Source of the DNA: Mobula hypostoma
Lineage: Eukaryota
DNA: 60,000 bases
Assembly: GCF_963921235.1 (NCBI RefSeq)
Contig: NC_086108.1
Span: forward strand, 44,766,001 to 44,826,000
Direction: 5' to 3'
Below the pieces are notes generated by a model. It ran no database searches. It was not told the origin of the DNA and saw only the letters and a program-made list of their open reading frames with translations. Within the stretch, counting starts at the first letter, position 1. Each line of letters opens with the position of its first letter. Shown one piece after another: positions 301-52,569 of this stretch. Position numbers and translations under genes: made by a program.

Positions 301-3300
301 TGACAGTCCCGCCATCCCGGGAATTAACCTTGTGAACCTACGCTGCACTCCCTCAATAGCAAGAATGTCCTTCCTCAAAGTTGGAGACCAAAACTGCACA
401 CAGTACTCCAGGTGTGGTCTCACCAGGGCCCTGTACAGCTGCAGAAGGACCTCTTTGCTCTTATACTCAAATCCCCTTGTTATGAAGGCCAGCATGCCAT
501 TAGCTTTCTTCACAGCCTGCTGTACTTGCATGCTTGCTTTCAGCCATGTATTCAACCTGAGCCTGAGGCTCCGGAGGGTTCCTGTACTGTGGAAGATGTC
601 CTGCCTCGTCCCTGTGCCGAAGACGCCGCGCCCCAGTGGCCTCAATGACTACAGACCGGTGGCATTGACCTCCCACATCATGAAGACCCTGGAGAGACTT
701 GTTCTGGAGCTGCTCCGGCCTATGGTGAGGCCACACTTGGATCCCCTCCAGTTCGCCTACCAGCCCCGACTAGGAGTTGAGGATGCCATCGTCTACCTGC
801 TGAACCGTGTCTATGCCCACCTGGACAAGCCAGCAGGTACTGTGAGGGTCATGTTTTTTGACTTCTCCAGTGCGTTCAACACCATCCGCCCTGCTCTGCT
901 GGGGGAGAAGCTGACAGCGATGCAGGTGGATGCTTCCCTGGTGTCATGGATTCTTGATTACCTGACTGGCAGACCACAGTATGTGTGCTTGCAACACTGT
1001 GTGTCCGACAGAGTGATCAGCAGCACTGGGGCTCCACAGGGGACTGTCTTGTCTCCCTTTCTCTTCACCATTTACACCTCGGACTTCAACTAATGCACAG
1101 AGTCTTGTCATCTTCAGAAGTTTTCGGATGACTCTGCCATAGTTGAATGCATCAGCAAGGGAGATGAGGCTGAGTACAGGGCTACGGTAGGAAATTTTGT
1201 CACATGGTGTGAGCAGAATTATCTGCAGCTTCATGTGAAAAAGACTAAGGAGCTGGTGGTGGACCTGAGGAGAGCTAAAGTACCGGTGACCCCTGTTTCC
1301 ATCCAGGGGGTCAGTGTGGACATGGTGGAGGATTACAAATACCTGGGGGTACGAATTGACAATAAACTGAACTGGTCAAAGAACACGGAGGCTGTCTACA
1401 AGAAGTGTCAGAGCTGTCTCTATTTCCTGAGGAGACAGAAGTCCTTTAACATCTGCCGAACGATGCTGAGGATGTTCTACGCGTCTGTGGTGGCCAGTGC
1501 TATCATGTTTGCTGTTTTGTGCTGGGGCAGCAGGCTGAGGGTAGCAGACACCAACAGAATCAACAAACTCATTCGTAAGGCCAGTGATGTTGTGGGGATG
1601 GAACTGGACTCTCTCACGGTGGTGTCTGAAAAGAGGATGCTGTCTAAGTTGCATGTCATCTTGGACAATGTCTCCCATCCACTAGATAATGTACTGGGTG
1701 GACACAGGAGTACATTCAGCCAGAGACTCATTCCACTGAGATGCAACACAGAACGTCATAGGAAGTCATTCCTGTCTGTGGCCATCAAACTTTACAACTC
1801 CTTCCTTGGAGGATCAGACACCCTGAGCCAATAGGCTGGTCCTGGACTTATTTCATAATTTACTGGCATAATTTACAGATTACTATTTAACTATTTATGG
1901 TTTTCTTACTATTTATGGTGCAACTGTAACGAAAACTAATTTCCCCCGGGATCAATAAAGTATGACTATGACTATGTGACTGATGTACAAGAACACCCAG
2001 ATCTCATTGTACTTCTCCTTTTCATAACTTGACTCCATTTAGATAATAATTTGCCTTTCTGTTCTTACCACCAAAGTGGATAACCTCACGTTTATCCACA
2101 TTAAACTGCATCTGCCATACATCTGCCCACTCACCCAGCCTGTCCAAGTCAGCCTGCATTCTCATCACATCCTCCTCATATTTCACACTGCCACCCAGCT
2201 TTGTGTCATCAGCAAATTTGCTAATGTTACTTTTAATTCCCTCATCTAAATCATTAATATATATTGTAAACAGCTGCAGTCTCAGCACTGAACCTTGCGG
2301 TACCCCACTGGTCACCACCTGCCATTCCGAAAGGGACCCATTAATCGCTACTCTTTGTTTTCTGTCAGCCAGCCAATTTTCAATCCATGTCAGTACTCTG
2401 ACCCCAATACCATGTGCCCTAACTTTGCCCACTAATCTCCTATATGGGACTTTATCAAAGGCTTTCTGAAAGTCCAGGTACACTACATCCACTGGCTCTC
2501 CCTTGTCCATTTTCATAGTTACATCCTCAAAAAACTCCAGAAGATTAGTCAAGCACGATTTCTCCTTCGTAAATCCATGCTGACTCGGACCGATCCTGTT
2601 ACTGCTATCCAGATGTGTTGTAATTTCATCTTTTATAATTGACTCCAGCATCTTTCCCACCACTGACGTCAGGCTAACCGGTCTATAATTCCCTGTTTTC
2701 TCTCTTCCTCCCTTCTTGAAGAGAGGGACAACATTAGCCTCCACGATTTCTAAAGCCACCTCCTTAAGTACCCTGGGATGCAGACCATCAGGTTCCGGGG
2801 ACTTATCAGCCTTCAGACCCAACAGTCCATCCAACACCATTTCCTGCCTAATATAAATTTCCTTCAGTTCCTCCATTACCCTAGGTCCTTGGCCACTATT
2901 ATATCTGGGAGATTGTTTGTGTCTTCCCTAGTGATGACAGATCCAAAGTACCTGTTCAACTCGTCTGTCATTTCCTTGTTTCCCATAATAAATTCACCCG
3001 TTTCTGTCTTCAAGGGCCCAGTTTTGGTCTTAACTATTTTTTTCCTTTTCACATACTAAAGAAGCTTTTACTATCCTCCTTTATATTCTTGGCTAGTTTA
3101 CTTTCGTACCTCATTTTTTCTCTGCGTATTGCCTTTTTAGTTACCTTCTGTTGCTCTTTAAAAGTTTCCCAATCTTCCGGCTTCCCACTCATCTTTGCTA
3201 TGTTATACTTCATCTCTTCTATTTTTATACTGTCCATTATTTCCCTTGTCAGCCACGGCCTCCCCTTAGGATCTTTCTTCCTCTTTGGAACGAACTGATC

Positions 3301-3710
3301 CTGCACCTTCCGCATTATTCCCAGAAACACTTGCCATTGCTGTTCCACTGTCATCCATGCTAGGGTATTGTTCCATTGAACTTTGGCCAGCTCCTCCCTC
3401 ATAGCGCCATAGTTCCCTTTGTTCAACTGTAATACTGACACTTCCGAGTTTCCCTTCTCCCTTTCAAATTGTAGATTAAAACTTATCATATTATGGTCAC
3501 TAACTCCTAATGGCTGCTTTACCTCGAGGTCCCTGATCAAATCCGGTTCATTCCACAACACTAAATCTAGAATTGCGTTCTCTCTGATAGGCTCCAGTAC
3601 AAACTGTTCTAAGAATCCATCTCGGAGGGACTCCACAAACTCTCTTTCTTGGAGTCCAGCACCAACCTGATTCCTCCAGTCTACCTGCATGTTGAAATCC
3701 CCCATAACAA
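301..3710 (-). mobile_element. Degenerate CR1 LINE ORF2 (endonuclease end, RT, C-terminus) interrupted by a Rex1-like element
   Basis: ORFs 3049-3705 (GDFN, SDHN), 2022-2876 (YLDFQKAFDKV, GVPQGS, KFADD) and 157-645 (LVRPHLEYCVQFWSP); host sequence continues across 543/1977. Confidence 0.9.
544..1976 (+). mobile_element. 5'-truncated Rex1/Babar-type non-LTR retrotransposon
   Basis: RT motifs DYRPVALTSHIMK, DFSSAFNTI, GAPQGTVLSPFLF; in-frame stop at ~1091; 3' end gggatcaataaagt plus (atgact)n tail. Confidence 0.85.
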
Positions 3711-4988
3711 ATGTAGCATTACCTTGTATAGCAGCATTGCATCAAAAATTACTATGTTACAATAAAAAAACATGGAACAGTTCAAAGCAGGAATAGTGAG
3801 CGACTGTTCATGGGTTTCTGGAGAACTCAGAAATCTGGTAACCGAGGGGAAGAAGCTGTTCCTAAATGTTGGGTGTGCCTCCTCCCTGACAGTAGTAATG
3901 AAGAAAGGGCATGTCCCAGATGGCGAAGGTCCGTAATGATAAATGCTGACTTGTTGAGTCATCCTTTTCCAGATAACCTTGATGATGGGGGCTTGAACCC
4001 GTGATGGAGCTGGCTGAGTCTACAACATTTGATCCTCAGAATCAGGTTTAATACTACTGGCATATGTTGAAAAATTTGTTATTTTGTGGCAGCACTACAT
4101 TGCAATATATAACTATAAATTACAATAAGTAAACATTAAAAAAAAACTAATTAAGTAGCAGAAAAAGAGAGGGGGAGATATTGAGTTAGCTTCATTGGTT
4201 TATTGTCCGTTCAGAAATCTGAAGGCAGAGGGGAAGAAGTTGTTTCTGAAACAATGAGTGCATGTCTTCAAGCTCCTGTACCACCTCCTTGATGTTGGCA
4301 ACAAGGAGAGGGCATGTCCTGGCTGATGCTGCTCCTTAATGATAGATGCTACCTTTTGAAGGTGTCCTGGATGCTGGGGAGGCTAATGAGAGGGAGGTAC
4401 TTTTGAAGCTTCTTCACTTGTACTGAGATGATTGTGTTTAATGCTGAGCTGCAATCAGTAAACAACAGCCCAACATACCTATTGCTGTTGTCCACGTGGT
4501 TTAAAGCCAAGTGTAAAGTCAATAAGTTTGCATCCACTGTAGACCTGCCATAGTGCTAGGCAAATTGCAATAGGTTCAGGTCCTTGCTCAGGCAGGAGGT
4601 AACTCTAGCCATGATTAACCTTACAAAGCTCTTCAACTCAGATTTTTCTGAAACCACAGCCATGTGCGCTATTTGTCGTATGTGTGTGTGCTGTTGATGA
4701 TTTGTTTTGCACCTTGGCTACAGAGGAACGCTGTTTCATTTGTCTATATTTGTGTATGCTTGAATAATAAGTAAACTTGAACTTGTCTGCTACCAGATGA
4801 TTTTTTTTTTAACAATGAAAAGACTATTTTACCCAGATTTCTACATGTGCGCGATTTGGTTTAGTTGAAGAAAGCTTTTAACACATAGTCCTTAACTGAA
4901 AATTAGCTTTCTTGTATTTTTCATCGTGGATGGCAAGTAATTTCAAATCCTCCAAAATAACAAGTTTCAGTTCGATTTCCTATTCCAG

Positions 4989-5057
4989 TCCGCAGGCTTA
5001 GTATCGAGAAAAGTTCAGAAAAGGATCCTGTGGACTTTGAACCTTTAGCTAAAAGTG
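4989..5057 (+). CDS. IFT25: Intraflagellar transport protein 25 (HSPB11), internal exon (69 nt)
   Basis: ttccag|..|gtaagg; reads (V)RRLSIEKSSEKDPVDFEPLAKS, resembling human VQTLKIEKSTSKEPVDFE. Confidence 0.88.
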
Positions 5058-5170
5058 GTAAGGGCATTCAATAAACCTTTTTATTAAGTCATTAGAGTTA
5101 CGAGAATAAATTGTTCTGTCCAATTCACCTGGTAGGTTTCATCTTTTGGTGATTTATTTTGTCTAAACAG

Positions 5171-5214
5171 AACTTGAACATGCTGAGGAACAGCTTCAAT
5201 TAGAAGAATTTGCT
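5171..5214 (+). CDS. IFT25: IFT25 internal exon (44 nt)
   Basis: aaacag|..|gtaagt; (E)LEHAEEQLQLEEFA versus human DLVHTEGQLQNEEIV; phases fit both neighbouring exons. Confidence 0.88.
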
Positions 5215-6331
5215 GTAAGTATTTTTTCAAGTTGCCATATTGCTCAATGTAGAATGATTATAGATCAGGAGTTCAACAGAGAAGAAATGAGCTGTATCAA
5301 CCTCAGATAACTTCCCTTTAGGCACAACCATTCAGGTTACTGTTGTCACAGGATATGAAATTATAGGGGGTGGAGTTGATTTGCATGCAAGAGAATAGAT
5401 TACAGAGAAATAAGTTCAGAACGGGACTGATAGGAATGCTTTGACATCATAAACTCATGAGCTGAATGACTTGCGTTTTTCAAGAAAATATGAGAAGCTT
5501 ATAATAAAAAATTATAGCTCTCCCAGTGGTAGAAAGTGTAGTTTGAAGAATGCTGTACTGTGATGTTATTAATGAAATGTTACACTGTGTTGTAATGGCT
5601 GTTGAATGGTTCAGAACAATTTGAGCAAGATCTACTCCTCACCAAGATGGGAAGCACATTACAACAAAGATCCCAAAATCTAATAAAATACAAATGACCC
5701 CCCCCCACCCCAAAACTTTGTGGCTGTTTGGGTAATATAAATTACTAGCTGAAAGTTTGAGATACAGGGTAAAAGAATAAAATACACTCTTAGAGAATAA
5801 GAAAGGTAAATAAACAAATGTATTTACAGTTTTATCTATCTCTTGTTTCTTGACATACACAGATAAAGTGGCTTTATTTTATGGAAATATATTTCCATTC
5901 CTTAGTAATACAGGGGTACAAAAGTTGAAATGCAAAATATTTAATTGAAATACTGTTATTACATTAATTTATAGGCTCTTTCTCTCAAAACCAATTTGGT
6001 TTTACTCTCTTATGAAAGGGTGGATTTTGCTGTGCACCAGTATTCAGAATCTAGCTTCTTTTACAATAATTTGAGATAGTCAACTTTGAAATTTGTTTTT
6101 ACCCTGAACGTGAATTTTCCAGTATAGTTCAATAGACTGTAACATGAACTCCTGGCAGCATGCACTTACCCAGATACCCAACCAGATTGTTGTTTCTTTT
6201 GTTATACTAGTTGTAACAAACTAACTGAACATAGAAAAGGGCTCATATGTAGTTTTCTCCACTCGACTGTTAAGCTACTGGTGAAGCAGCATTTTATTTT
6301 AAAGTGAATTAAAGAAATCTTTTCTTTGCAG

Positions 6332-6439
6332 CTGGATGGAACAAGGGCGACACATCTACGATTTGTTATTAAATCAGCTTTTGACCATTTTGTATCAGTA
6401 CACAAAGTGACAGTAGAAGGTACAGAGGAAATCACTTAA
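6332..6439 (+). CDS. IFT25: IFT25 last coding exon
   Basis: tttgcag| LDGTRATHLRFVIKSAFDHFVSVHKVTVEGTEEIT*, resembling human ATYLRFIIVSAFDHFASVHSVSAEG; synteny with DIO1. The 5' exons are not in the window. Confidence 0.92.
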   Translation: MDGTRATHLRFVIKSAFDHFVSVHKVTVEGTEEIT

Positions 6440-6537
6440 GTCCATAGAACACAACTGTGAACTTTGTAAAGGGAAGATTGAATTGTGAAGTCCAGGTTTG
6501 TTAAGCAATTAATGTTATGTACATTCTTATTCTTCTG

Positions 6538-6543
6538 AATAAA
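6538..6543 (+). terminator. IFT25: Candidate IFT25 polyadenylation signal AATAAA
   Basis: First AATAAA after the stop, about 100 nt downstream. Confidence 0.6.
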
Positions 6544-6568
6544 CTCATGGCTTTGTAACATTACAGCC

Positions 6569-6574
6569 TTTATT
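6569..6574 (-). terminator. DIO1: Candidate DIO1 copy A polyadenylation signal (another at 6642-6647)
   Basis: TTTATT on + strand, downstream of the SECIS in the DIO1 direction. Confidence 0.45.
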
Positions 6575-6808
6575 GGTCATTCTGGAAAATATTTGATCAA
6601 AATCCGAATGGTGCATTGAAACATTTTCAAAGTGAAGATACTTTATTTCAAAATTGTTTCAACTCATCAGAATGGATTGTAACAGCTTTATAATAATTCA
6701 GATATAATAAAAAAAATTCACTCCTTTTAAATACATAGATATGCAAAGTATGTGTGGAATAATTGTTTAATAGTCCAGAATCAAAAAAACTTCATCCACA
6801 GATTTAAA

Positions 6809-6888
6809 TGATCTTAGCCATATTTCACAACATTAGACTACAGCCTTAATTTTGGCTGCAATCTTCATAAATAACATAGCTAAAATCA
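6809..6888 (-). promoter_or_regulatory. DIO1: SECIS-like hairpin of DIO1 copy A (form 1 geometry, non-canonical AUGA/UAAU core)
   Basis: Minus strand: TGATTTTAGCTATGTT-ATTT-ATGAA-GATTGCAGCC-AAAATTAA-GGCTGTAGTC-TAAT-GTTGTGA-AATATGGCTAAGATCA; 16-bp helix I, 10-bp helix II, apical AAA. Confidence 0.85.
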
Positions 6889-8178
6889 TTACACCCCAGT
6901 GGTTGACGTTCCAAATTCGTTAAATTCTAAGTGAAGCAGAATAATTGTTATGATTGGGTTTTTAAATTCTAGAAATTTGAAAAATGGATGGAAAAGAAGC
7001 AGGAAGATAAGATTTGTTAACATGAGAAATTGGCATGGATTTCTGGAAAGGAAGTCATCTGATCAATGTACTAGATTACACTGCAAAATTGTTTAAAATA
7101 AAAAAAAAGTAAAAATAGTGGAAAGCCAATGAATGTGCTGTACATGAATTTTCAGATAACTTTACACTCTAACCTTTGCCTTTAAAAACTAAAGAGCATG
7201 ATTATTAGAATAATGGCATGATCAAAAATTGGTTGACAAGTGTCACAATTGGAATAAAATGACTGGCAATAATAATTATAAATAGCACCATAATCAGTAT
7301 TTGGGCCTTAGCTCTTCACAATATATCAATGATTTAGATGAGGGAAGAAATTTAATTACCTGAAGTTTGACAATAATATAAAATTTAGTGGAATTGAGTT
7401 GCAAGGAGGCTCGAGGTGATTTAGAGTTTGAACAAGTGCACAAAGAATTGGCAGATGCATGCAACATTCATAATTGTTGTGCACTTTAGTAGGAGAAAAT
7501 GGTGGTGAATTATTTGAATTATGTGGTAAATAGTAAGCATTCTTGTATTCCACATACTGAAAGCAAAATCCAGATGTTGTAAAGTGTACTTGGGTTTAGC
7601 ATTGGGGATGCTAAACCCAAGTTTAGCACCCAAGTGTGGGGGGCGGTGGGACCCAAACAGCACATACAGGAGGGGTGAGGGGAGGGTAGGGCTGGAAAGG
7701 GGAAAGGAGACAAAGTAGTAGGGTTTCCTTTGCTTTTTGCTTGTTTACTATGCATACATTCATTTGACTTTCATTACGTTGTTATAAGAAAAAAGCAGCA
7801 TTGTACTTTAAGCTGATGTTGCTTCACAATAAAAACATTTGAAAACAGGAATCCGTTCTTTTTCATTTGTTAGTATTGTGAAATTGAATGTTTCAGAAAG
7901 CAGTAATTTATCAAGCATTTCCCACCACCAGCCCTAACTGAAAATTTTCAGTTTAAACTTTTAGTAATTAGTACAATTTATATTAAAACATAAAATACAA
8001 AGTTACCTTTCCTTATTTTCAAACCATCATATCCCAGTCATAGCAATTCAAACTGAGAAAATTATCAAGATGGAAATGAAAACTACTCAGATCAATTTAC
8101 AATTAGGCTTGATCATATGAAAAAGTCAAAGAAACCTTTCTCAGATTATACCAGTACTGAAAACTGCCAACATGTGGT

Positions 8179-8244
8179 TTAACTTTGGTTTTGCAAAATT
8201 AATCGTACTTCTTCTGGTTTGTATCCTGAAGGTCCTACGTCGCC
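8179..8244 (-). CDS. DIO1: Type I iodothyronine deiodinase copy A, exon 4 coding part
   Basis: tttcag| GDVGPSGYKPEEVRLILQNQS*; compare human GKSGPWNYNPEEVRAVL. Confidence 0.92.
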   Translation of the reverse strand, partial: GDVGPSGYKPEEVRLILQNQS

Positions 8245-8694
8245 CTGAAATACATGTAAATATATAGTTATGAGAAATTAAGCACCATTGCTTTCAGAGA
8301 TTGACAGTGTTTTGATCTGCCTTGTCTGATTCATACCTGTGACAGATCAATTTGTTTCACTCTTCTCTTCAGTAACATTTTACTCCATGATTACTGCTAG
8401 AAACACAAGACGTCTTTGAGTCTGTAACCCTAAAGTTCCATTTTATGACAAATTAATGGAAAACAATGGCAATTTAATGTGCTGGGTGGGTGGGGGGGGG
8501 TTGTGGTGGTGGGGTTAAGGTTCCAGTACCTATTAAGTGCTCCTAATGGTTTGCGTCAACTAAGTCCAGCTCCTTGCCTTCATGTGTGGCTTAGCTACTA
8601 AGCTGGGTGGAACACTTTCTACTGGCAAGAGAAGGGGCAAAAGTGGGTTAACTGGTGCCTTAAAACCAGTCGCTCTGGGCAGATAGGGCTCACA

Positions 8695-9810
8695 GAAATA
8701 TAGAAAACCTACTGCACAATACAGGCCCTTCGGCCCACAAAGTTGCGCTGAACATGTCCCTACCTTAGAAATTACTAGGCTTACCCATAGCCCTCTATTT
8801 TTCCAAGCTCCATGTACCTATCCAAAATTCTCTTAAAAGACCCCATCTTCTCTGCCTCCATCACCATTGCCAGCAGCCCATTCCACACATTCACCATTCT
8901 CTGCATTAAAAAGCTTACCCCTGACATCTCTGTACCTACTTCCCAGCACCTTAAACCTGTGTACTCTTGTGGCAACCATCTCAGCCCTGCGAAAAAGCCT
9001 CTGACTATCCAGACAATCAATGCCTCTCATCATCTTATACACCTCTATCAGGTAACCTCTCATCCTCTGTCACTCCAAGGAGAAAAGGCCAAGCTCACTC
9101 AACCTGTTTTCATAAGGCATGCTCCCCAATCCAGGCAACATCCTTGTAAATCTCCTCTGCACCTTTTCCATGGTTTCCACATCCTTCCTGCAGTGAGGCG
9201 ACCAGAACTGAGCACAGTACTCCAAGTGGGGTCTGACCAGGGTCTTACAAAGCTGCAACATTACCTCTCGGCTCTTAAGCTCAATCCCACAATTGATGAA
9301 GGCCAATGCACCGGATGCCTTCTTAATCACAGGGTCAACCTGCGCAGCTGCTTTGAGCGTCCTATAGACTCAGACCCCAAGATCACTCTGATCCTCCACA
9401 CTGCCAAGAGTCTTACCATTAATACTATATTCTGCCATCATATTTGACCTACCAAAGTGAACCACCTCATTATCTGGGTTGAACTCCATCTGCCACTTCT
9501 CAGCCCAGTTTTGCATCCTATCAATATCCCGCTGTAACCTCTGACAGCCCTCCACACTATCCACAACACCTCCAACCTTTGTGTCATCAGCAAACTTACT
9601 AATCCATCCCTCCACCTCCTCATCCAGGTTCTTTATAAAAATCACGAAGAGTAGGGGTCCCAGAACAGATCCCTGAGGGACGCCACTGGTCACCGACTTC
9701 CATGCAGAATATGACCCGTCTGCAACCACTGTTTGCCTTCTGTGGGCAAGCCAGTTCTGGATCCACAAAGCAACGTCCCCTTGGATCCCATGCCTCCTTA
9801 CTTTTGAGCA
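8695..9810 (-). mobile_element. 5'-truncated CR1 LINE in DIO1-A intron 3
   Basis: ORFs with GVPQGSVLGP, KFADDTK, LVRPHLEYCAQFWSP. Confidence 0.85.
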
Positions 9811-10299
9811 TGGCTTGTTACCCATGGTTAGCATCCCACCTAGGAGGAAATCTCTGATCGCAAACCGCCTGTCTTGTGGCAATACCCACTCACGGGGAAG
9901 GCTTCAGGAGTAAATCCCAAAGAAAAATCAGAGGCTGGGGTCCCTAATTGACTGGCAGTTCCTGAGATGCAGCTGGTGTCAAGCTGTATCAGTTTCTGCC
10001 ATTCCTTTGGATTCATCAGCTGCATGGAGAGGGGGAGCTGCTGCATGGGCAACAGCTTGCTCTCCATATTGTACTGTCCTGGCTTGTGTATCATGTAGAC
10101 AGCTAGGATGCAACATCCATGGTCGGCCTCACTCGCTGTAGATTCATTGTGTCAATAGCATCAACAACATGTAAAAACCAGTTATTCAAAACGATTTTGA
10201 AATAGTATCCTGCTATTTGGTACAGTTTTCTTTAAATTTGAGCAAGTTAATTCTACTGGTAAACTTGGATTGAAAAGTCAAAAACGCATTTACAGGACC

Positions 10300-11720
10300 A
10301 CATGACACAGGAGCAGAATTAGGCCATTAAGTCCATTGAGTCTGCTCCAGCATCCCATCTTGGCTGATTTATTATCCCTCTGAGCCCCATTCTCCTGTTC
10401 TTTCCCTGTAACCTTTGATATCCCTACCATTCAAGAACCTATCAAACTCTGCTTTAAATATACAAAGTGATTTGGCCTCCACAGCCATATGAAGCAACAA
10501 AATTCCAGTTTCACCACTTGCTGGCTAATGAACTTCCTCCGCATCTCCGTTCCAAAGGGACAATGTCCTATTCTGAGGCTGTGCCCTCTAGGTACTAAAG
10601 TCCCCCAATACAAGATACATTCTACCCAGTTCCACTCTATCTGGGCCTTTTAATATTTGATAGGTTTCAATGAGATCTCCCCCCTCATTCTTTTAAAATC
10701 CAGTTCACCACATTTTTTGATAATTGTTTGGAAACCATTGATTTTATTTTCCCCCTCATCTTTCTCATATTTACACAATCTTCCCTTTTCAGTTTTTCCA
10801 TTCAATCACAAAAGACATGCGCAAAATGTAAAATTCCATGTTTACATTTTCCCAATTTAGAAAGCTCAATTGTGAATTTACTCAACTGTGCTATTTTAGT
10901 CTTGCCAACTTCTGGCACCATGCCAAGTCCCAAGACCCTCTCTTACCTTGCTTACATCCTCCTTTAATCAGAGCGAAAACACAATCAATTGAGATGCAAA
11001 GGGACTTGGGAGTCCTTGTGCAGGATTCCCTAAAGGTTAATTTGCAGGTCAAGTCTGGTGAGCAAGGCAAATGTGATGTTAGCATTCATTTCAAGAGGAC
11101 TAGAATACAAAAGCAAAGATGCAGTGTTGAAGCTTTATAAAGCATTGATGAAGCCTCACTTAAAGTATTGTGAGCAGGTTTGGGCCCCTTATCTTAGAAA
11201 GGATGTGCTGAAACTTGAGAGTTCGAAGGAGGTTCACGAAAATGATTCCAGGAGTGAACTCTCAAACTCAGTGTCTGATGGCTGTGGGCCTGTATTCACT
11301 GGAATTCAGAAGAACAGCGTGGAGGGGAGGGAGGTGACCTCATTGAAACCTATCAAATAGGTGGAAAGGCCTTGACAGAGTGATGTGGAGAGGATGTTTC
11401 CTATGGTGGGAGAGTCTTAAGACCAGAGAACACAACCGCAGAATAGAGGGGCAACCTTTTAGAACAGAGATGAGGAATTGCTTTAGCCAGAGGGTGGTGA
11501 ATCTGTGGAATTATTTGCCACAGGCTGCTGTAGAGGGCATCTTTATGTATTTTTAAGGCAGAGGTTGATAGATTCTTAATTGGTCAGAGCATGAAGGGAT
11601 ACAGGGAGAAGATAGGAGATTAGGGCCAAGAGGAAAAGTGGATCAGCCATGATGAAATGGCAGAGCAAACTCAATGGGCCAGATGGCCTAATTCTGCTCC
11701 TATATCTTACAGTCTTATCA
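10300..11720. mobile_element. Old CR1 3'-end fragments in both orientations
   Basis: RGHSLRI and KANVMLAFISRGLEYKSKD remnants; CR1-like 3' UTR gcctaattctgctcctat. Confidence 0.7.
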
Positions 11721-11980
11721 ATTTTTAAAAATTTAATTAATTTGCTTATTTATTGACATACAGTGCAGAGTAGGCCTTCTGGCCCTTTGAGCCATGCCAT
11801 CCAGCAATCCCCCAATTTAATCCTATCCCAATCATGGGACAATTTACAATGTCCGATTACTCTACCAACTGGTACATCCTTGAACCACACAGTATGGGAA
11901 GAACATAGAAACTCCTTGCAAGCAGAGTGGGAATGTCATGGATAAAAACCAGACTTTTTAGGTTTGAAATTTATTTTCAT

Positions 11981-12220
11981 TAGGGGCAGCACAGTGGCTT
12001 AGAGTTTAGTGCAACACTGTTATAGTGCCGATGATATGGGTTCACTTCCTGCTGCCGTCTGCAAGGAGTTTGTACGTTCTCCCCGTGACCATATAGGTTT
12101 CCTCCCACATTCCGAAGATGTGGCCAATTAACCACCCAACTCGTACATGGGTGTTACTGTGCAGTGCGGGTTGTTGGGCAGAAGGGCCTATTACCGTGCT
12201 GTATCTCTAAATAAATAATT
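11981..12220 (+). mobile_element. tRNA-derived V-SINE-like element (copy at ~58000-58240)
   Basis: A/B-box-like head, gtttgtacgttctccccgtgacc...ggtttcctcccacattcc core, (taaa)n tail. Confidence 0.65.
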
Positions 12221-12408
12221 TAGCTTATCTAGTATTAACCAACTCCCTCAGGAACAGGTAAGGTACAAATTAGAGTGCATTAGCCTTTGCATTGTACTTG
12301 GGTAGAAACAAAATGTCTGATAAAAGACTAGCAGTGAAGCTACTGATTTGGAATTAAGGATGGATTTAACATACAAAGTAACGTTTGAGTGTCAGGATAC
12401 TCAGTTAC

Positions 12409-12608
12409 CTTGTAAATGATTTTGCCATTGAGCACCACGTACAGTCTCTCTGGCATGGCTCCATATTTAGCACAAGTCATATTATCCATAGAGTCAACTA
12501 CAATTGGACAGGGAGGCTCCTCTTTTAGCAAGATCCTTGCTGCATTGATACGATCATTTAATGTTTGATGTTTTTTAATATCCACATTGTTCTTGAATGC
12601 CCAGACAT
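12409..12608 (-). CDS. DIO1: DIO1 copy A exon 3 (200 nt)
   Basis: tttcag|AT GTC TGG ... TAC AAG|gtaact; [24 protein letters not shown]...[10 protein letters not shown]...YGAMPERLY. Confidence 0.96.
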
Positions 12609-14253
12609 CTGAAACAAACAAGTAATAAAATGAAGTAATCAATATAAAGGACCTCACAAAAATTGTCATTTTTGTTTGGAGATAAAAACTGAGATGATTT
12701 ATAATGAAACATTTGCAAAGATGCTAAATAAATGATTGAAAAGCCAAGGGTATAATTAAGTAAGGTAAAAGATAAAACAGGCAGTAATAATAGTGAGATA
12801 ACACAAAACTTGGTTTTACATTTCCACCAGTTAAAGATGTGAGTGAAATCTATAACTAAGAAAGATAATTGTGGTTACAAATCTTTTTTTCTAACACTTG
12901 AACTAAAGTACAACAGCCATACCTCAGAGCAGTGTCCCCAGCCCAACCATCTTCAACTGCTTCACCTATGACCTCCTTTCTATGATATGGTTAATGGAGA
13001 TGATTGCTGGCAACTGTACGATATTCAATTCCATTTACAACTTCTGTAAATAAAGTAGTTCAGATCTTCATGCAGCAGGACCTGGACAATGTGCAGGTAT
13101 GAGTTGATAAGTAGCATTTAACAGTCACACCAAAGTAGCAAGCAATCACCATCTCTATTTGGGAGAATTCAACCATCTACCCTTGACATTTAATGCAATC
13201 ACTGTTGCAGGGTTCCACACCATCAACCTTCAAGGGGGACTGACTAAAAACTTAGTTTTTAAGATAAAGTGTGGCTCGAGGAGCAGCTCAGAGACAGGGG
13301 ATCTGAGATGCCAAAGCTTCTAAACATCTGCAATGCTCAAATCAAAAGAGCAATGAGATTATCTGTTTTGATGCAAGCTCAGTATCATCCAGGACAAAGC
13401 AAACCACTTAGCTGACATACTACTGGTACCAAAATAGCAGTACAGTGCCATCTGCAGTTACTTGCCTAATCTAACCTGAAAGCAGCTCCAAAACATATGA
13501 CCTCTACCACCAAGCTTGACAAGAGTAGCAAGCATATTGAGGACACCACCTGTACGTTCCCCTTTAGGTCACATATCCTACCTTGGCAGTATATTGAAAA
13601 AAAGTCATTTTCAGTATGTCTAAGTACCAGGAACCATGATCACTAGAATGGCTGGTTCAGGAAGCTGAATATTCTACATCCTGGCTGGCTGAATCATCTC
13701 CTGGTATAATAATTCCAACGCACAGGAATGCAAGAGGCTGCAGGAAGTACTGCCAGCACGAGAGCATCTCTCCCCACCACTGTAAGCATTTAAATGAAGA
13801 GCCACCTCAGAAGCAGCAACTTTCATCAAGGAATCCTCATCACCTGTAACTTGCTGTTACAGTCAAGCAGCAGATACAGAAGCCATCAGGTTCTTGAACC
13901 AATCTGCCAAAACCCTCATCCTACTTCAGCAAAACAGAATTCCTCTTGTACTACCATGGGCTTGCCACCGACTGTTTGTGTTTTCACTTTAATGTCTTAG
14001 ACAAAATTATGTACAACTTATGTCCTCTGAATCTATGTCTATGCTGCTGCTGCAAGCTTTTCACTGTTCTTGTACCTCACCATACCTGTGCATAGGACAA
14101 CAAACTTGACTTGACCACCACCAGCTTCCCAAGGGTAATTGGCGAGCATGGATGATGAGCAGCTTTGTGCATACCGAAGATACAGCTTTAAAATCGTATG
14201 TAAGAGCAGCAAATCACAGAAAAGGATTTCTTTCTCTGAGAATCTATTCATAC

Positions 14254-14397
14254 CTGTAGCATGCGCTTCTTCAATGTAGACAATAAGAAAATCAGCCACA
14301 GATTTGAAGTCTTTGACAAGATTTTTGAACTCATCAAAGCGGAAAAGAAACGGAGGTCAGGTGCAACTTCCAAAATTCAACACCAGTGGTCGATTAT
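14254..14397 (-). CDS. DIO1: DIO1 copy A exon 2 (144 nt) with selenocysteine TGA at 14359-14357 (Sec124)
   Basis: ccccag|AT AAT CGA ... ACA G|gtatga; [48 protein letters not shown], the deiodinase active-site signature. Confidence 0.97.
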
Positions 14398-14759
14398 CTG
14401 GGGGGAGGGTGGGAAAGTAAATCTATTTAAAAGAAAGCTCTGGACATACAATTTACAGTATAAATATTACCTGTCAAAGATCACATTGGATGGATATGAA
14501 AATAGTGCATAATGAGACTGTAACCAAAGAATTCAGAAACTTTTCATTTTTCAGAGATTTAGAACAATTGGGAAATACAACTGAAAAAAAATTATTCATC
14601 TTATACACAATGAATTACTTCGCTCTTTCACAGTTGGCACAGAAGTTATGAAAGAATAGGACAGAGAAAACAATCAAGGTTGTGGAGAATGCAGCTGAAA
14701 GTGGGATTAATTGGGACAGTTTTTAAATTGATATTTTTTAAAGCATCAATTTAGAGAGA

Positions 14760-15870
14760 AGAAAAAGTCTGCAGATGCTGAAAATCTGAGCAACACACAA
14801 AATGCTGGAGGAACTCAGCAGGCCAGGCAGCAGCTACAGGGAAAAAAAAGCACAGTCGACAGGACTGGGGGGAAAACGTTGAGCAGATTTGAAAGATGGG
14901 GGAAGGAAGAGAGAAGTGCCAGGCGATAGGTGAAACCTGGAGGGGGAGGGATGAAGCACAGAGCTAGGAAGTTGATTGGTGAAAGAGACAGAAGACCCTG
15001 GAAGAGAAGGGGGGGGGAAGCACCAGAGTGAGGATATGGGTGAGCGTGGAGCTAACATGAGAGGGCAAAAAAGGCGATGGCAAATTCTGGAGGGGGCAGG
15101 GAAGAGGCATTACTGGAAATTTGAGAAATCGATAGTCATGCCATCAGGTTGGAGGCTATTCTAATGGAATTTAAGGTTTTGTTCCTCCAACCCAAGTGTG
15201 GCCTTATCCAAACAATGGAGGAGGCCACGGATGGACATATTGGAATGGGTAGTGGAATTAAAATGGGTGGCCGCTGGGAGACCCTGCTTGTTCTGGTGGA
15301 CGGAGCGTAGATGCTCGGTGAAAGCGGTCTCCCAGTCTACGTCCGGTCTCTCTGATATACAAGAGGCCACACCGAGAGCACCGAACACAGTAAATGACCC
15401 CAACAGACCCACAGGTGAAGTGTTGACTCACCTGGAAGGACTGTTTGGGGCCCTGAATGGTAGTGAGGGAGGAAGTGTAGGGGCAGGTGTAGCACTTGTT
15501 CTGCTTGCAAGGATAAGTACCAGGAGGGAGATCAGCAGGGAGGGACGAATGAACAAGGGAGTTGCGTAGGTAGTGATCTCGGCGGAAAGCAGAAAGTGAA
15601 AGTATGGGGGGGGTGGGGAAGAGAGAAGAAGGAAAGAAAGAGGGAGGAGGCAGTAGTTTCGGAGAATTATGCAACACTCACAACACGCTGGGGGAACTCA
15701 GCAGGTCAGGCAACATCCGTGGAAATGATCAGTCAACGTTTCGGGCCGGTCCTGACAAAGGGTTCCGGCCCAAAACGTTGACTGATCGTTTCCATGGATG
15801 CTGCCCGACCTGCTGAGTTCCCCCAGCGTGTTATGAGTGTTGCTTTGACCCCAGCATCTGCAGAGTATTT
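14760..15870 (-). mobile_element. Penelope-like element remnant (GIY-YIG endonuclease fragment) with inverted terminal repeat segments
   Basis: ORF 15258-15677 VIYCVRCSRCGLLYIRETGRRLGDRF; ~170-bp inverted repeat at 15670-15843. Confidence 0.75.
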
Positions 15871-16869
15871 TGTTGCTACACATTCTATGGGCCAATTCAA
15901 CCTCCATGTAAAAAAAAACACGATTGGTCGAAGGAGGAATCTCAAGTACAACGTTTATCTTATTTAAACTTAAAGCCATTTTATATAACCTAACACGACA
16001 AAGTAACAAAACATGGTCCATTTTTAAGTGAAGATACTACCCATTTCTTTGTTCTCCTTCGACCCTGTAATTGTCCAAAATATACAATGTTTCCAATTCC
16101 TATTTCAATCGCTCAAACATTGATGGATCTATGTTCAGCTGCCTAAACTCTGGAACTACCACTTTGAAATTCTCCCTCACTTTCCTGCTCCAAGACATTC
16201 TCTACAACTAAATGCTAATGTGGCTGCCTCAGATTTTGTTTGATCGTGCTCATTTTTAGTGCCTGAAAGGCACTCGAAATAGAAGTTTTTGTTTTTTTTT
16301 AATGTATAGAATGCTCCATTGCCCAAAGCTAGCGAAATGTAGCTTGGTTATATCTATTCTATCGTTATGGGAGGAATTGCTCAAATTACTTAAGGCAGCG
16401 GTTGCGGACGTGATGAACATGACTTTTGTTGCATAAAAATACGCTGAATAAATACGGCGTTTATTTTGGTAAATCTCACACAAGACCAAACACGAACATG
16501 GAATGCTGCGCCCTTTGGTAGAGCTATGTAGGACAATAAAGCCTTAAAGTAATTTAACTTTCTTAAAACCAATGCCCCAAATTACGTTGTTTTTTGTTTG
16601 TCCCATTGATACGCTTTTGAACGTTTGTCTACATATAAACGAGCTGTTATCAGAAAGTTCAGCTTCATATATTTGACATTTGGCCACCAACAAGATGCAG
16701 TTTAGTTTTGAGCTTAGGTGTTTCGAATCTAAGCCTGCCTTCAGGAAAGAATTACGTTACATTTAAAATATATATTACAGAGATCAAATGTACTTGTTGA
16801 GCTGAAAATACGCGAACACATTACTGTTTTCACAAGCCCCGAACGTTATTACGTGTAACTCACACAGAC

Positions 16870-17200
16870 CCCTCGAGAAATCAAGCACTCGATGTTCTTT
16901 GTTGTCGAAGTCAATAACTCGTGTATTGGGAGCAAAGGCACCCTCGAAAGCTTCATCTCCAATATTTATCAATAGCTTTTTGGCTACCGCTTTCACGGTG
17001 CTGAGACTGAAAAATGTTGGTCCCCAGTCTTCGTATTTGAATTTTGGATTTTGAGTCATGAATGTTTTCAATCCAGATTTCAGCATGACTTTCTTCACAG
17101 TTTCAGGAAAGAGAAGCAGCATAAATTTACCAACTAATGCTTGCAAGCAAAAAAATATTAGCAAGCCCAAACTCTTTACGTACACCACTAATTTCCCCAT
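16870..17200 (-). CDS. DIO1: DIO1 copy A exon 1 coding part (331 nt)
   Basis: MGKLVVYVKSLGLLIFF.. hydrophobic N-terminus, MTQNPKFKYEDWGPTFFS, APN; donor AGG G|gtctgt; the four exons total 741 nt = 246 aa + stop. Confidence 0.95.
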
Positions 17201-17252
17201 CTCTGCAAAAAGCTAGCTGCTCCAATGGACACAAAAGCTAGCAGCGCCAGTA

Positions 17253-17285
17253 TTTATACTTACGTAAAATATGACCCTTTGACCC
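17253..17285 (-). promoter_or_regulatory. DIO1: DIO1 proximal promoter: TATAAA (17258-17253), TTACGTAA (17260-17267), GGGTCAaaGGGTCA direct repeat (17285-17272)
   Basis: Motifs read directly 53-85 nt upstream of the ATG; function inferred. Confidence 0.6.
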
Positions 17286-17419
17286 TGGCAGGGCGTAAGC
17301 ATTAGAGATCTAAAACAATTTATTGAAGATCAATGAAAAAAAATAGTAGAATATAGGATAAAACGACTTCATTATAAGTAAGTTTTAAAAAGTAGAGCCC
17401 AAACAAAGCCAGCTATTTT

Positions 17420-17720
17420 GTCTTTTGCACTTTGCCGCGGTGCAGGAGCATTGTTCAGGTGTATAAGTGGGGAATTATCTGTCGGCATATTAAAGTCTGT
17501 GGTGAGTGAGTTGAGTGACAATGCCTTTAAGAAGGAGTTGACGCTGACGCGTCACTGCGGCCTAAGCTCAGCTCAGATTCGACCAGTACTGCGTGGTGGC
17601 CGGACCTACTCCGGCTCGGCCCCTGGATTCAGACAGTGAATACAAATACGGTCGCTGTCAGGAGGGGATTGTCTGTGAACTTCTGCCGCGGTGAGGGAGG
17701 CCCGCGCCCTGTCTCCATGG
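17420..17720 (+). promoter_or_regulatory. YIPF1: CpG-enriched segment, probable YIPF1 promoter/first non-coding exon (candidate donor GCG|gtgagg at 17690)
   Basis: Locally high CpG, palindrome TGACGCGTCA at 17545-17554, head-to-head with DIO1 as in human. Confidence 0.45.
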
Positions 17721-19894
17721 CAAAGGAAAGGGGTGGATTCTTCATGTGACCCTGTAGGTTTCCTCCTGGTTCTTTGGTTTTCTCTCACACATCCCACCAC
17801 TGTCACATGCCCCTAGTGTGTAGGTGAGAGGTGTAATCTCTGGGGCAGTTGCTAGGTACAGAATTTGAGATACAAGGTGCATAACGGATGGTACAGATTT
17901 AGTCGGCTGAAGGACCTGTTTTGGTGTTCTGTGACTCCCCCCACCCCCCAACCTACCACCAGCACCACCACCACTCATGTTTTTAAGTAACTCCTTTTTT
18001 TTGCAGTTTTTTGTAGTGTAGTTATGTGATATTTAATACAGAGGCAAATTATAAGTAATTCAAATAATGAAATTGTTTAGCTTGTTGATAAATGCACAGA
18101 TGAATTGAAGCCCTCTGATGAAGCTAGGTTAACACCTCTTTAGACAGAATCAGAATTAGTTTTAATATCACTGACATATATCGTGAAATTTGTTTTGCAG
18201 CAGCAGAACAGTGCAATACTTAAAAATACTATGTTACATAGAAAACCTACAGCACAATACAGGCCCTTCAGCCCGCAATGCTGTGCCGAACATGTACTTT
18301 CTTTAGAAATTACCTATGATTACCCATAGCACATTACAGTGAGAAAGATATTAAAATTAATTAAGTAGTGCAAAAATAGTGAGGCAGTGTTCATGAATTG
18401 GCTCATTGCCTTTCAGAAATCTATTACAATCCATTATCAGAACTATGGTGGAATGGATATGAAGTAAATTGTTAGTGCCTATCACAATTATTTTTGTATT
18501 GTCCCTGGCCCATTTTATTAATTTAGTGATGAATTTAGCACAGTTAGTTTGCAACAATAATGACCATTTGTAGAGCTTTAACATAAATAAAAATACCAGC
18601 AACATTAAGAGTATTCAGATGGTTAATAATACTTTTATAATCTTTCATTCATCTGTGTTTTAATGTAGAGTTTGATGATGCTACAAACCTATTGGCAGCA
18701 AATCCTGATGCCACAACAATAAGCATCACGGATCCTAATGATAAGCCTAAAAATCAGAGAGGTCCATCAGATGAACTGGGAAAAGATGAAGATAAAGATT
18801 TGTTGGAGAATGAAGACTGACAAGGCAGAGGTGAGTAATTTTTGTAGTAGTAATTGAACACTAAGGTCAATATCTTATGTACCCCGAAATATATAATTAT
18901 TTTAATAATGTGCAAAATTTTTAAAAATGGGTTGAAAAGAATATTGTCAAATAACCCCATTTTTATCATTATTAATCACCTTCAGTCCGCCTTAAAATTA
19001 AAACCTTCCATAAAATCTCTTATTGGAAATGCATCTAGTTGTCCTTTTTTGTATTGTTACACCACAAGTGAATGTGGTTCTTGTTTCTGTTTGTGAATAT
19101 AATATAGGCAAATTAAGGGTGGATTATAATATTGATTGCTTTTAAATGAAATTTTAATTGAGTTATTGCATCATCCCTGCTACGTAGCAACTTTGCTATT
19201 TCTTAATGAATTTTATTTCTATTTTGTAAAGCAAAACTATCCACATTTAGAATATTGATCAAGTTTTGTGGTTAATATTTGTTGTTTTCTTTAGTTGCTT
19301 GCAGGACAAAAGAAAAGTGCTCCTTTTTGGACTTTTGAATATTATCAAACATTTTTTGATGTTGACACCTTCCAGGTAGGGACAGAATTAAATTTCTTTA
19401 CCATCTTTGATTACTATATAATAACGAAACAGCAAGGTTTAATAATATTATTTAATATTTTCTTACCTTATCTTCATCTTGTCATTGTGGGTATTGATTT
19501 ACATCATGTTTTGATTGTGGCTGATATCAATTTACTGGTATCGATGCGCACAACCCCTTCTTCCCAAATGACCATTCCTTTTATGTGATCATAACAGTGA
19601 ATGGCAACAAAATTCTGCACGATCACAGAGCCTGATCCTGTTTTATCTCTTGTAGGCATACATTAATGTTCAAATAATCAACGATTAGGTAATGTAATCC
19701 AAGCCTGTTTGTTTTTCCAATCTTGCACAAACTACTATATTCAAATTTGGTATCCCTGTTGCCTTTGTGCAGGAAATCATCTATCTCAGCAGTTACCTGG
19801 GGTTTTTTTTAACTTGCTAAGAAATTAATTAGGAAGTTGAAAATTCTGACATAGCACAATAATTAAACTCAAATTTTTCCTTTCTGCATTGTAG

Positions 19895-20044
<150 letters not shown>

Positions 20045-20321
20045 TGAATATGAAATGTCCTTTTTTCCCCCTTTCATATTAACCCTCGGCAGCCACTTTA
20101 TTAGGTATTTCCTGTACCTATTAAACTGGCTACACAGTGTGTGTTCTGTAGCCCTCTGCTACTGTAACCCATCCACTTCAAGGTTCGACATGCGCATTTA
20201 GAAATGCTCTTTTGCATACCATTGTTGTAACGTGTGGTTATTTGAGTTACTGTCATCTTCCTGTCAGCTTGAACTGTCTGGCCATTTTCCTCTGACCTCT
20301 CTCGTTAACGAAGTGTTTTAG

Positions 20322-23300: not shown

Positions 23301-23880
23301 CGTTGAGGCTCTATAAGGCATTTGTGAGACCACACTTGGAGTTTTGGGCTCCTTATTTTAGAAAGGATATACTGACATTGGAGAGGGTTCAGAGAACATT
23401 CATGAGAATGATTCCAGAAATGAAAGTGTTACTGTTTGAGGAACGTCTGGCAGCTCTTGGGCTGTATTCACCTGGAGTTCAGGAGAATGAGGGGAAATCT
23501 CATAGAAAAGTTCCAAATGTTAAAAGGCTTAAACAGATTAGATATGGCAAAGTTATTTTGTATGGTAGGGGATTCCAGGACAAGAGGGCACGACTTCAGA
23601 ATTGAAGGACATCCTTTTAGAACTGAGATGCGGAGAAATTACTTTAGTCAGTGGGTGGTATATCTGTGGAATTTGTTGCCACGAGTGGCTGTGGAGGCCA
23701 AGTCATTGGGTGTATTTAAGGCAGAGATGGATAGGTTCTTGATTAGCCAGGGCATCAAAGAGTATGGGGTGAAAGCAGGGGAGTGGGGATGACTGAAAGA
23801 AATAGATCAACCCGTGATTGAATAGCAGAGCAGTCTCGATGGGCCGAATGACCTACTTCTGTTCCTATATCTTATGGTCT
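20322..23880 (+). mobile_element. CR1 LINE (degenerate RT and 3' end) interrupted by a Tigger-like element
   Basis: ORFs 22694-23050, 23234-23605, 23436-23792; host is continuous across gtagaTA|TAggacc. Confidence 0.85.
20522..22111 (-). mobile_element. Non-autonomous Tigger/pogo-like element with TA target duplication and a long internal palindrome
   Basis: Termini CAGGTTTCCCCCGC / GCAGGGGACACCTG, TA on both sides; transposase-like C-terminal remnant 21260-21583. Confidence 0.75.
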
Positions 23881-24143
23881 ACAGAACTGCTGCTCACTGG
23901 ATGTTGTTTGATTTCTTTTGCACCAGTCTCTGTAAATTCTAGAGACTGTTGTACATGGAAGTCCCAGACCATCAGTTTCTGAGATTCCCAAACCACCCTG
24001 CCTGGCACCAACAATCATTTCACGGTCAAAGTCACTTAAATCACATTTCTTCCCCAATCTAATGTTTGGTCAGAACAAATGAACTTGTCAACTACATTTG
24101 CATGCTTTTTTCCATTGAGTTGCAAGTTAATACCTTTAATATA

Positions 24144-25680: not shown

Positions 25681-26609
25681 TATATGATTGTATAAAAGTT
25701 TTCTTTTGTAAAAAAAAATATAGTGATTATCTTTGAGGAAATCTATAGTATTTCTAAAAATTCCAAAACTGAAATGAACATTTTTTCTATCTTATGAAGA
25801 TGAAGGTAACAAATCTGTTACTGTTATTTGATACTTAGGAAAAACAAACAAATGCTTTATTTTAGAAATTTGTGTTTGTCAGATCCCTTCTGGATCTGTG
25901 CCACTCTGGTGTTTGCAATTGCAATAAGTGGGAACTTTGCCAATTTCTAGACTCATCATGGCCAGCGTGGTTATCGTTACGTACCTGAGTTCCATAAAGG
26001 TAGGGAGGAAATACTTCATTATTACAGAAATATAATTTAATTAAAATGTTTTCTTTAGGTGGCTCAGCGATGTAACGAACACGCTATCCTATTTAAGAAC
26101 AAGAAAACATTGATCACCATTTCACTCTGACATGAATGACCTCATCAGGCACATTGTGCACATTTTCCAGTATTGGTCTCACATGAAAAATGGTGCAGGT
26201 CAAGAAGCTATCTTTTAAATGCTGTCATTTGTAGATGGAATCTGATAATATTACAAAACTAATTTCATAATTATAGAATCTGCAATAACATAATAGATTT
26301 TAATTGCACTGTTGGTGATAATGGTATATATTAAAGGGTTTAATGGGGATTTAAAAATCTCCATTGGAAAGTGACTGTAACCAGACGGCATAAATGTAAA
26401 AGTTCCAAATGCAAATTGTTTGAATATGGAATGCTGTTATCAGTGGAAACAAAATCCATACAGCCTTTTGCTGGGATGCAGATAATATCTGAAAATGAAT
26501 TTTAAAAGGGCACAGGATATGTTCTGAAAACTAGATGTGCACTTGTTCATTGCCATCTTTCTGTGATGCAAAATTCTTGAACTACTTTGCAATAGTGTGT
26601 TAAATAATC

Positions 26610-31203: not shown

Positions 31204-31257
31204 ACGAAAACCAATTTCCCCCGGGATCAATAAAGTATGACTATCACTATGACTATG
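31204..31257 (+). mobile_element. Extremely 5'-truncated Rex1-like 3' end
   Basis: Matches the tail at 1929-1976 (gaaaaccaatttcccccgggatcaataaagtatgact...); tatgaaaac on both sides. Confidence 0.65.
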
Positions 31258-45690: not shown

Positions 45691-45746
45691 TGGTAAACAA
45701 TAACCAATTAACTTATTTTTTCTCTGAAATCTCTGAAACTCTAGCT

Positions 45747-52489: not shown

Positions 52490-52569
52490 TGATCTTAGCC
52501 ATATTTCACAACATTAGACTACAGCCTTAATTTTGGCTGCAATCTTCATAAATAACATAGCTAAAATCA
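52490..52569 (-). promoter_or_regulatory. DIO1: SECIS-like hairpin of DIO1 copy B
   Basis: Identical to 6809-6888, including the UAAU 3' core. Confidence 0.85.

Follow-up and report, generated by a model that had tools for sequence, protein, structure and literature searches.

The window, by which we mean the entire 60,000-nucleotide stretch of Mobula hypostoma DNA analyzed here, carries on its minus strand one type I deiodinase gene (DIO1 copy A) and the 3′ part of a second (copy B). The coding part of exon 1 of copy A lies at 16870..17200, exon 2 at 14254..14397, exon 3 at 12409..12608 and the coding part of exon 4, which ends in TAA, at 8179..8244. For copy B, the coding part of exon 4 is at 53867..53932 and exon 3 at 58427..58626, and exons 2 and 1 (60401-60258 and 63323-62993 in extended coordinates, also on the minus strand) fall past the end of the window. 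The gene was identified by a PF00837 match and four coding exons, and among named proteins the nearest are type I deiodinases of sharks, with identities of 60-67% in exon 1 and 75-82% in exon 3. Exon 2 holds an in-frame TGA as codon 124 (SCT*PPF; 14359-14357 in copy A), which sits in the active-site motif of PF00837, 303 nt 5′ of the last exon junction; if it were read as a stop, the product would be 123 amino acids, as the initial annotation had stated. Both DIO1 frames are intact and retain this single in-frame TGA.

The proteins used for comparison are uneven at this site. The UGA-containing segment is absent from six named shark and eel DIO1 entries (P0001-P0004, P0011 and P0012), which may be either mispredictions or isoforms in which exon 2 is skipped, and in the unnamed P0005 and P0010 the site is occupied by W, likely a TGA called as Trp by the gene caller. 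One further protein search recovered nothing beyond its own query at the cut-off applied.

The two DIO1 genes belong to a tandem duplication, of which unit 1 covers about 45 kb (1157..46186) and unit 2 runs from 46837 to ~91857 (extended coordinates). Aligned blocks are 94-98% identical, for an overall identity of ~97% (~3% diverged), and the units carry unit-specific insertions. We considered whether the second unit could be a false haplotype copy, a reading disfavored by the ~3% divergence, the unit-specific insertions and a frameshifted neighbor exon, all of which favor a real duplication. The exon in question (18674-18830, plus strand) is part of a head-to-head neighbor gene, which we take to resemble YIPF1; it has a 2-nt deletion and frameshift in unit 1 only and is intact in unit 2 (extended 65878). 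Intron 2 differs between the DIO1 copies by 0.7% and intron 1 by 3.4%, and the low value for intron 2 suggests gene conversion. A genome search with PF00837 returned eight exon matches, which belong to the two DIO1 genes, one DIO3 and one DIO2-like gene; a third DIO1 was found neither among these matches nor by DNA or pattern search of the genome. The DIO2-like gene (G000:C1:25007605-25008330; L005, L015) is a single GC-rich open frame without a coding intron, followed ~1.4 kb downstream by a canonical SECIS. Vertebrate DIO2 usually has one coding intron.

A SECIS hairpin with one changed core base

On the minus strand beyond the copy A stop codon, the sequence 6888-6809 folds into a hairpin with the geometry of a type I SECIS and an energy of −35.4 kcal/mol (z = −7.87); none of 200 shuffled sequences was equally stable. 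Its core lies 1310 nt past the stop and 5′ of three candidate AATAAA poly(A) signals (starts at 6647, 6574 and 6298, within 6293..6647), which is the 3′ UTR placement expected of a SECIS. An ATTAAA at 7356 (minus strand) is located between the stop and the hairpin and, if used, would yield DIO1 mRNA lacking the element. In the pair table obtained with the core held open, helix I joins 6888-6873 to 6809-6824 (16 bp, extendable to 18) and helix II joins 6863-6854 to 6836-6845 (10 bp, or 11 bp when the core pair A6864-U6835 is counted), with an internal loop below the core. The apical loop is AAAAUUAA, beginning at 6853, and its unpaired AAA occupies 6853-6851. Refolding thus reproduced every element of the geometry first proposed from inspection, namely the 16-bp helix I, the internal loop, AUGA, the 10-bp helix II and AAA. 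An identical hairpin accompanies copy B (52490..52569, minus strand), with no differences from copy A over 85 nt, and DNA and pattern searches of the whole genome found exactly these two occurrences.

The 5′ core strand reads A6868-U-G-A-A6864 (6864..6868), its AUGA at 6868-6865 fitting RUGA, and the 3′ core strand reads U6835-A6834-A6833-U6832 (6832..6835). The plus-strand letter is T at both 6834 and 52515, the equivalent position of copy B, so that the RNA has A in both copies and the unusual UAAU is indeed common to the two. Because the core consensus published in the accessible part of PMC3753652 is UGAN/KGAW, base 6834 is the sole departure from it: where the canonical 3′ GA would form the tandem sheared G·A/A·G pairs, both copies and the related organisms described below have AA (6834-6833). 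The folding model leaves A6834 unpaired with a probability of 1.0. The Rfam SECIS_1 model (RF00031) aligns to 6820-6877 with 19.4 bits, where its gathering score is 35, and the hairpin fails the SECISearch pattern NTGA..AA..GA given in the available portion of PMC2375036, which bears out the expectation that standard search patterns would miss it.

Presence and age of the variant base

We asked whether sequencing runs agree with the assembly at this position. The last exon and UTR were at least partly present in 20 of the 24 runs listed, and four of them were compared over 6500-7020. A single contig from X1 (Mobula hypostoma) covered the entire 521-nt stretch with no differences. The other three runs come from three studies other than that of X1, and all cover 6834: the X17 contig (organism C) spans 6500-6945 with 14 other letters, the X19 contig (organism D) spans 6526-7020 (495 nt) with 44 other letters and 18 gap letters, and the X20 contig (organism E) spans 6800-7020 with 12 other letters. 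For none of the four runs was a difference at 6834 among the rows listed (40 of 50, in order to 6907); the remaining rows include one common to three runs while weaker single-run rows are listed, so the selection looks positional. The absence of a change is firm for organisms C and D because such a row would outrank listed ones in depth or in distance from a contig end, and organism E likely has A as well, with less certainty than C and D.

None of the runs with these sequences is recorded as RNA. X1, X19 and X20 are guessed to be RNA, the kind of X17 is not given, and the stretch compared spans no splice joint; the sizes of these runs (50-143 million letters, against 1,671-2,832 for large DNA runs) fit RNA. 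Of the words sampled along the last exon and UTR, a fraction of 0.98 is present in four probable RNA runs, one of them at a depth of 225. X1 may share its source with the assembly, and contigs drop minor variants. No copy-B contig was found in X1 over the stretch compared, which has no bearing on whether copy B is silent.

Contigs from other organisms carry the same base, which excludes a sequencing or assembly error. The presence of the variant in both copies, which the initial annotation had put forward as the argument against error, is weak evidence when taken alone: the UTRs of the copies differ at 33 of 1626 sites, and the probability of seeing no difference in 80 nt is 0.19. Organism D is ~9% diverged from Mobula hypostoma in the DIO1 UTR, roughly threefold the distance that separates the duplicates. 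Since it has the A, A6834 is older than the ~3%-diverged duplication. By the SECIS consensus, the ancestral base was presumably G; a degenerate pattern run against metagenome contigs gave no matches to shark or skate DIO1 3′ UTRs. Taken together, the hairpin is a real, natural exception to the SECIS core rule that is common to the lineage.

Other SECIS candidates

No better SECIS had been seen below the DIO1 stop, and this held. Two pattern-and-fold scans found no canonical GA-core SECIS on the 60-kb minus strand, and the loosest scan found none in the 4.2 kb below the stop. The sensitivity of these scans was limited with respect to known elements of the genome: DIO3, which Rfam did find, escaped all three, DIO2 escaped both the strict scan and the second, and the second also failed to recover the right register for one GPX element. 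A scan that relied on helix pairing alone was discarded as too loose. Within 5500-8400 the best Rfam SECIS match was the hairpin 6809-6888 itself, no match in the window exceeded the gathering score, and a genome-wide Rfam search, in which 130 of 59,395 candidates were scored, gave only two unrelated hits. These three scans and Rfam are good, though not complete, evidence that another SECIS is absent from the DIO1 locus. A GA does occur at 6826-6825, 9 nt below helix II, and we rejected this alternative core register on geometry because it needs a 9-nt one-sided bulge.

Seven distinct SECIS candidates elsewhere in the genome served as controls, and all seven keep the 3′ GA, so in this sample the G-to-A core change is specific to DIO1. 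The controls comprise DIO3 (GUGAA/UGAU), DIO2 (AUGAA/GGAA), four GPX loci and a duplicated element on C67; two of the six GPX loci examined (L029 and L031) yielded no candidate. The C67 elements (C67:60041466 and C67:60442394; L012 and L013) have an identical core and helix II and are inverted, 400 kb apart, which suggests another duplicated selenoprotein gene. A search of the genome with PF10262 gave no match. Canonical elements of this genome scored 28.3 and 29.2 bits (DIO3 and one GPX) and 38.6 bits; since the first two also fall below 35, a sub-threshold Rfam score is not unusual here.

We also looked at the protein that would have to read the element. The one SECISBP2 exon examined encodes a sequence that differs little from its human counterpart, retains GLREV and shows no obvious compensating change relative to it. 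We take the Arg of GLRE to correspond to N33 of L7Ae. The genome also has a SECISBP2L-like gene, so called on our assumption that SECISBP2L is the paralogue.

Selection on the reading frame and the hairpin

Of the coding differences between copies A and B, 8 are nonsynonymous and 7 synonymous (pN/pS 0.31, p = 0.025). Upstream of the UGA there are 7 and 3, respectively (pN/pS 0.65, p = 0.38), and downstream of it 1 and 4 (pN/pS 0.07, p = 0.008), bearing in mind that these tests rest on 15 differences and that the split at the UGA was chosen post hoc. As the half after the UGA is protein only when read-through occurs, constraint there is the best indirect sign of function, implying, within these small counts, that read-through of UGA 124 would still be under selection. 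Had the gene evolved neutrally after its lineage parted from that of organism D, the whole frame would be intact with a probability of roughly 0.03-0.06, and the post-UGA half with one of 0.16-0.23.

The hairpin itself was compared with its flanks using the differences listed up to 6907. In organism D the hairpin interior has 2 changes in 73 sites and the flanks 32 in 309 (p = 0.025; p = 0.049 for C and D combined). The difference is not significant for the full 80-nt hairpin (4/80 and 30/302, p = 0.12) or for the 37-nt upper stem (2/37, p = 0.34), and we regard greater conservation of the hairpin than of its flanks as suggestive only. None of the hairpin changes in organisms D and E is compensatory; they break pairs, one or two of them at the far end of helix I. 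Both organisms have U at position 6857, giving a U·U mismatch (6857·6842) in helix II where Mobula hypostoma and organism C have an A-U pair.

The protein shows some lineage-specific changes at conserved sites. Both copies carry G160V (codon 160, within 12608-12600, minus strand) in a DGW motif whose G is present in all eight other aligned DIO1 proteins; P114L is found in copy B and W231S in copy A. Across 89 conserved columns this lineage has 5-6 private changes, compared with 1 in a relative (p = 0.13-0.22), which hints at relaxed constraint on DIO1.

Discussion

The DIO1 hairpin resembles the vertebrate DIO1 type I SECIS (RF00031) in its location in the 3′ UTR of a UGA-containing DIO1, in its helix I, internal loop and AUGA, and in its 10-bp helix II with one core pair, its apical AAA and the G-C first pair above the core. 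It differs in having UAAU for KGAW and in scoring well under the Rfam cut-off, and because one defining canonical feature fails we class it as a variant of the type I element. The accessible parts of earlier surveys describe the core as uniform: UGA/GA was invariable in the 286 curated elements of SECISaln apart from one GGA/GA exception (PMC2647825), and GA/GA was found in every element of a 44-vertebrate survey (PMC3316567). A 2026 survey including nine cartilaginous fishes places DIO1 in all jawed lineages and, in the portion available, reports no core variant (PMC13134290). We found no prior report of a SECIS with a G-to-A change in the 3′ core in the main texts of the largely open-access literature; the classic mutagenesis and structure work may contain the exact mutant.

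Two other natural core changes offer a comparison. The SelT elements of Toxoplasma and Neospora have a GGA/GA core, and the accessible part of PMC11431864 credits the Toxoplasma element with high activity; that core departs at the 5′ U and keeps both sheared pairs, whereas here one sheared pair is changed and the host is a vertebrate. The U-to-C disease mutation of SELENON (AUGA to ACGA) is likewise a single-base change in a vertebrate SECIS core, but it is a patient mutation of the protruding U, with which SBP2 binding is lost (PMC3706390 and PMC1874613, both in excerpt), unlike the Mobula change, which affects another position and is common to several species.

That position can be named in kink-turn terms, a point absent from the initial annotation. 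The protruding U of the SECIS AUGA is kink-turn L3 (PMC1874613, in excerpt), and by the nomenclature of PMC1874613 and PMC5061560 the 5′ strand AUGAA would supply L2, L3, 1b, 2b and 3b, making G6866 1b, A6865 2b, A6833 1n and A6834 2n. On this mapping G1b·A1n and A2b are kept and A stands at 2n. Non-standard kink-turns vary most often at 2b·2n (PMC5061560), and A·A at this pair is an isosteric substitute for A·G, occurs naturally in Kt-23 of Thelohania solenopsae and has been crystallized in the folded state with L7Ae (PMC3985660). This Kt-23 and the G2nA mutant of the SAM-I riboswitch share with the DIO1 core an A at 2n, with an A·A 2b·2n pair beside an intact G·A 1b·1n pair. They differ in being an rRNA and a riboswitch with a 3-nt bulge, a C·C at 3b·3n, and archaeal L7Ae or tertiary contacts to hold them, while the Mobula core has a large internal loop, an A-U at 3b·3n, SECISBP2 as its would-be binder and a fold that is predicted.

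Several observations indicate that such a core would be weaker. G2nA blocks ion-only folding of an isolated kink-turn, although tertiary contacts rescue it, and Watson-Crick pairs at 3b·3n, as here, fold weakly without protein (PMC5061560). A competing fold, in which 6870-6865 pair with 6825-6830 and the 5′ core is buried, is favored by 2.0 kcal/mol in this hairpin and by 1.0 kcal/mol when a G is placed at 6834 in silico; in canonical elements of the genome the value is 0-0.5 kcal/mol for six of seven and 2.7 for the seventh, and all of these figures come from folding models that treat sheared pairs poorly. With G2nA and A-U at 3b·3n both folding poorly and the competing fold favored, a weaker, protein-dependent kink is predicted. 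The contact lost with the guanine, between N33 of L7Ae and O6 of G2n, was judged unlikely to be replaced by anything important (PMC3985660).

We therefore do not expect a normal element, and the reading that we consider probable, from sequence and by analogy with solved kink-turns, is that the DIO1 hairpin is a functional but weakened non-standard SECIS directing selenocysteine insertion at UGA 124. Under this proposal, G6866·A6833 would form a normal sheared G·A pair (1b·1n) and A6865·A6834 an A·A pair (2b·2n) with one hydrogen bond, isosteric with the A·G of solved kink-turns. The kink would fold poorly on Mg2+ alone and form only upon binding of SECISBP2, which would still bind because U6867 and G6866, the bases read most strongly by L7Ae-type proteins, are intact. 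Without the guanine O6 contact, affinity and selenocysteine insertion would be lower, so that less full-length DIO1 would be made per mRNA and the other ribosomes would stop at codon 123. A weak SECIS can nevertheless be a working one, since the activities of human elements in cells span several thousand-fold (PMC2761289, in excerpt). The suggestion of a functional non-canonical SECIS, one of three that had been offered for this hairpin, is thus the best supported, through the occurrence of A in several species, the apparent purifying selection after the UGA and the kink-turn precedent. The second, a weak SECIS compensated by gene duplication, survives in part. Weakening is likely; the duplication (~97% identity) is much younger than the A, which is present in an organism ~9% diverged, and so did not arise with the core change. 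Later dosage compensation by the DIO1 duplication is possible.

The precedent drawn from L7Ae may not transfer, as SBP2 is described as more demanding than other L7Ae proteins (PMC1874613). Mutation of the tandem GA pairs abolished binding of L30 (PMC3706390), and SBP2 is said to need these pairs in order to bind (PMC2761289), each statement being taken from the accessible part of its source. Given a choosier SBP2 and the loss of L30 binding in GA-pair mutants, a loss of function has to be reckoned with.

A weakened element is not the only way in which the hairpin could work. It is conceivable, though we give it clearly less weight, that the A·A core is a full-strength SECIS, its stable helices and SECISBP2 binding offsetting the lost hydrogen bond so that the change is near-neutral. 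The A has been kept across organisms up to ~9% diverged, the hairpin is very stable (z = −7.9), A·A is an isosteric pair and L7Ae is said to read its targets mostly by shape (PMC3985660), and the other known core variant, that of Toxoplasma, is highly active in the account excerpted from PMC11431864. A harmless change should, however, turn up in SECIS surveys, and none is reported in the available parts of PMC3316567 and PMC2647825. Destabilization of isolated kink-turns by G2nA (PMC5061560) and the 1 kcal/mol that the competing fold gains over the G form also speak for some cost.

The third suggestion, that DIO1 is losing recoding, fares worse, and we think it unlikely. The SECIS would then be dead or nearly so, UGA 124 would mostly terminate translation to leave 123 amino acids from an mRNA that is a candidate for nonsense-mediated decay, and full-length protein would come from leaky near-cognate read-through. 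An otherwise invariant base is indeed broken, the UGA lies far enough upstream of the last junction (303 nt) to be in keeping with decay, conserved sites have changed in this lineage (G160V in DGW among them), and the function could be covered by DIO2 and DIO3, both of which have canonical cores. Moreover, an intact post-UGA half is by itself not improbable under neutrality (P = 0.16-0.23). A whole intact frame is improbable (rough P = 0.03-0.06), however, and constraint after the UGA (pN/pS 0.07), conservation of the hairpin interior and the retention of TGA in both copies with no switch to a cysteine codon all argue against such a loss, as do the probable RNA runs that hold nearly all of the last exon and UTR, one of them at great depth.

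Two further explanations seem to us very improbable. A-to-I editing could turn A6834 into inosine in part of the mRNA and partly restore a G-like core. ADAR can act on an unpaired A in a long duplex, and A6834 is such a base. Editing, which had been raised at the outset, gained no support: the Mobula hypostoma contig has no difference at 6834 and no A>G appears there among the rows listed for the four runs, from whose contigs minor variants are dropped. Inosine also has no N2 for the G N2-A N7 bond, which is described as always present at 2b·2n (PMC5061560). Alternatively, a working SECIS could sit outside this hairpin, in a 3′ exon that is distant or alternatively spliced, or the hairpin could use another register such as the GA at 6826-6825. 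The scans covered the window and simple patterns only, and that GA exists; the minus strand of the window, however, has no GA-core candidate, the genome-wide Rfam search, within the candidates scored, returned unrelated hits, and the alternative register calls for the one-sided bulge noted above. Error in sequencing or assembly, for which one could cite the prior rarity of the variant and a possible common source for X1 and the assembly, has a negligible chance of being correct, since the two copies have A and so do contigs that separate studies obtained from other organisms.

The one sequence feature of the eukaryotic SECIS that is regarded as fixed is the tandem G·A/A·G core, and the patterns with which selenoprotein genes are sought have it built in. 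A vertebrate SECIS in which A is kept across species offers a ready test of how SECISBP2 recognizes its target, and of whether the folding rules of kink-turns predict the efficiency of selenocysteine insertion. A working element would mean that search patterns have to be broadened, and a failing one that a selenoprotein gene has been caught losing its recoding signal. We tentatively raise the further possibility, which we hold with less than even confidence, that a cartilaginous-fish lineage has long run DIO1 on an A·A kink-turn SECIS with near-normal or usefully tuned selenocysteine insertion. If this were true, recognition by SECISBP2 would depend chiefly on core shape, the “invariant” GA/GA rule would fail for one pair of the two, and a class of genuine SECIS elements would escape every search that demands a 3′ GA. 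The base at 2n would then be a natural dial on thyroid-hormone activation.
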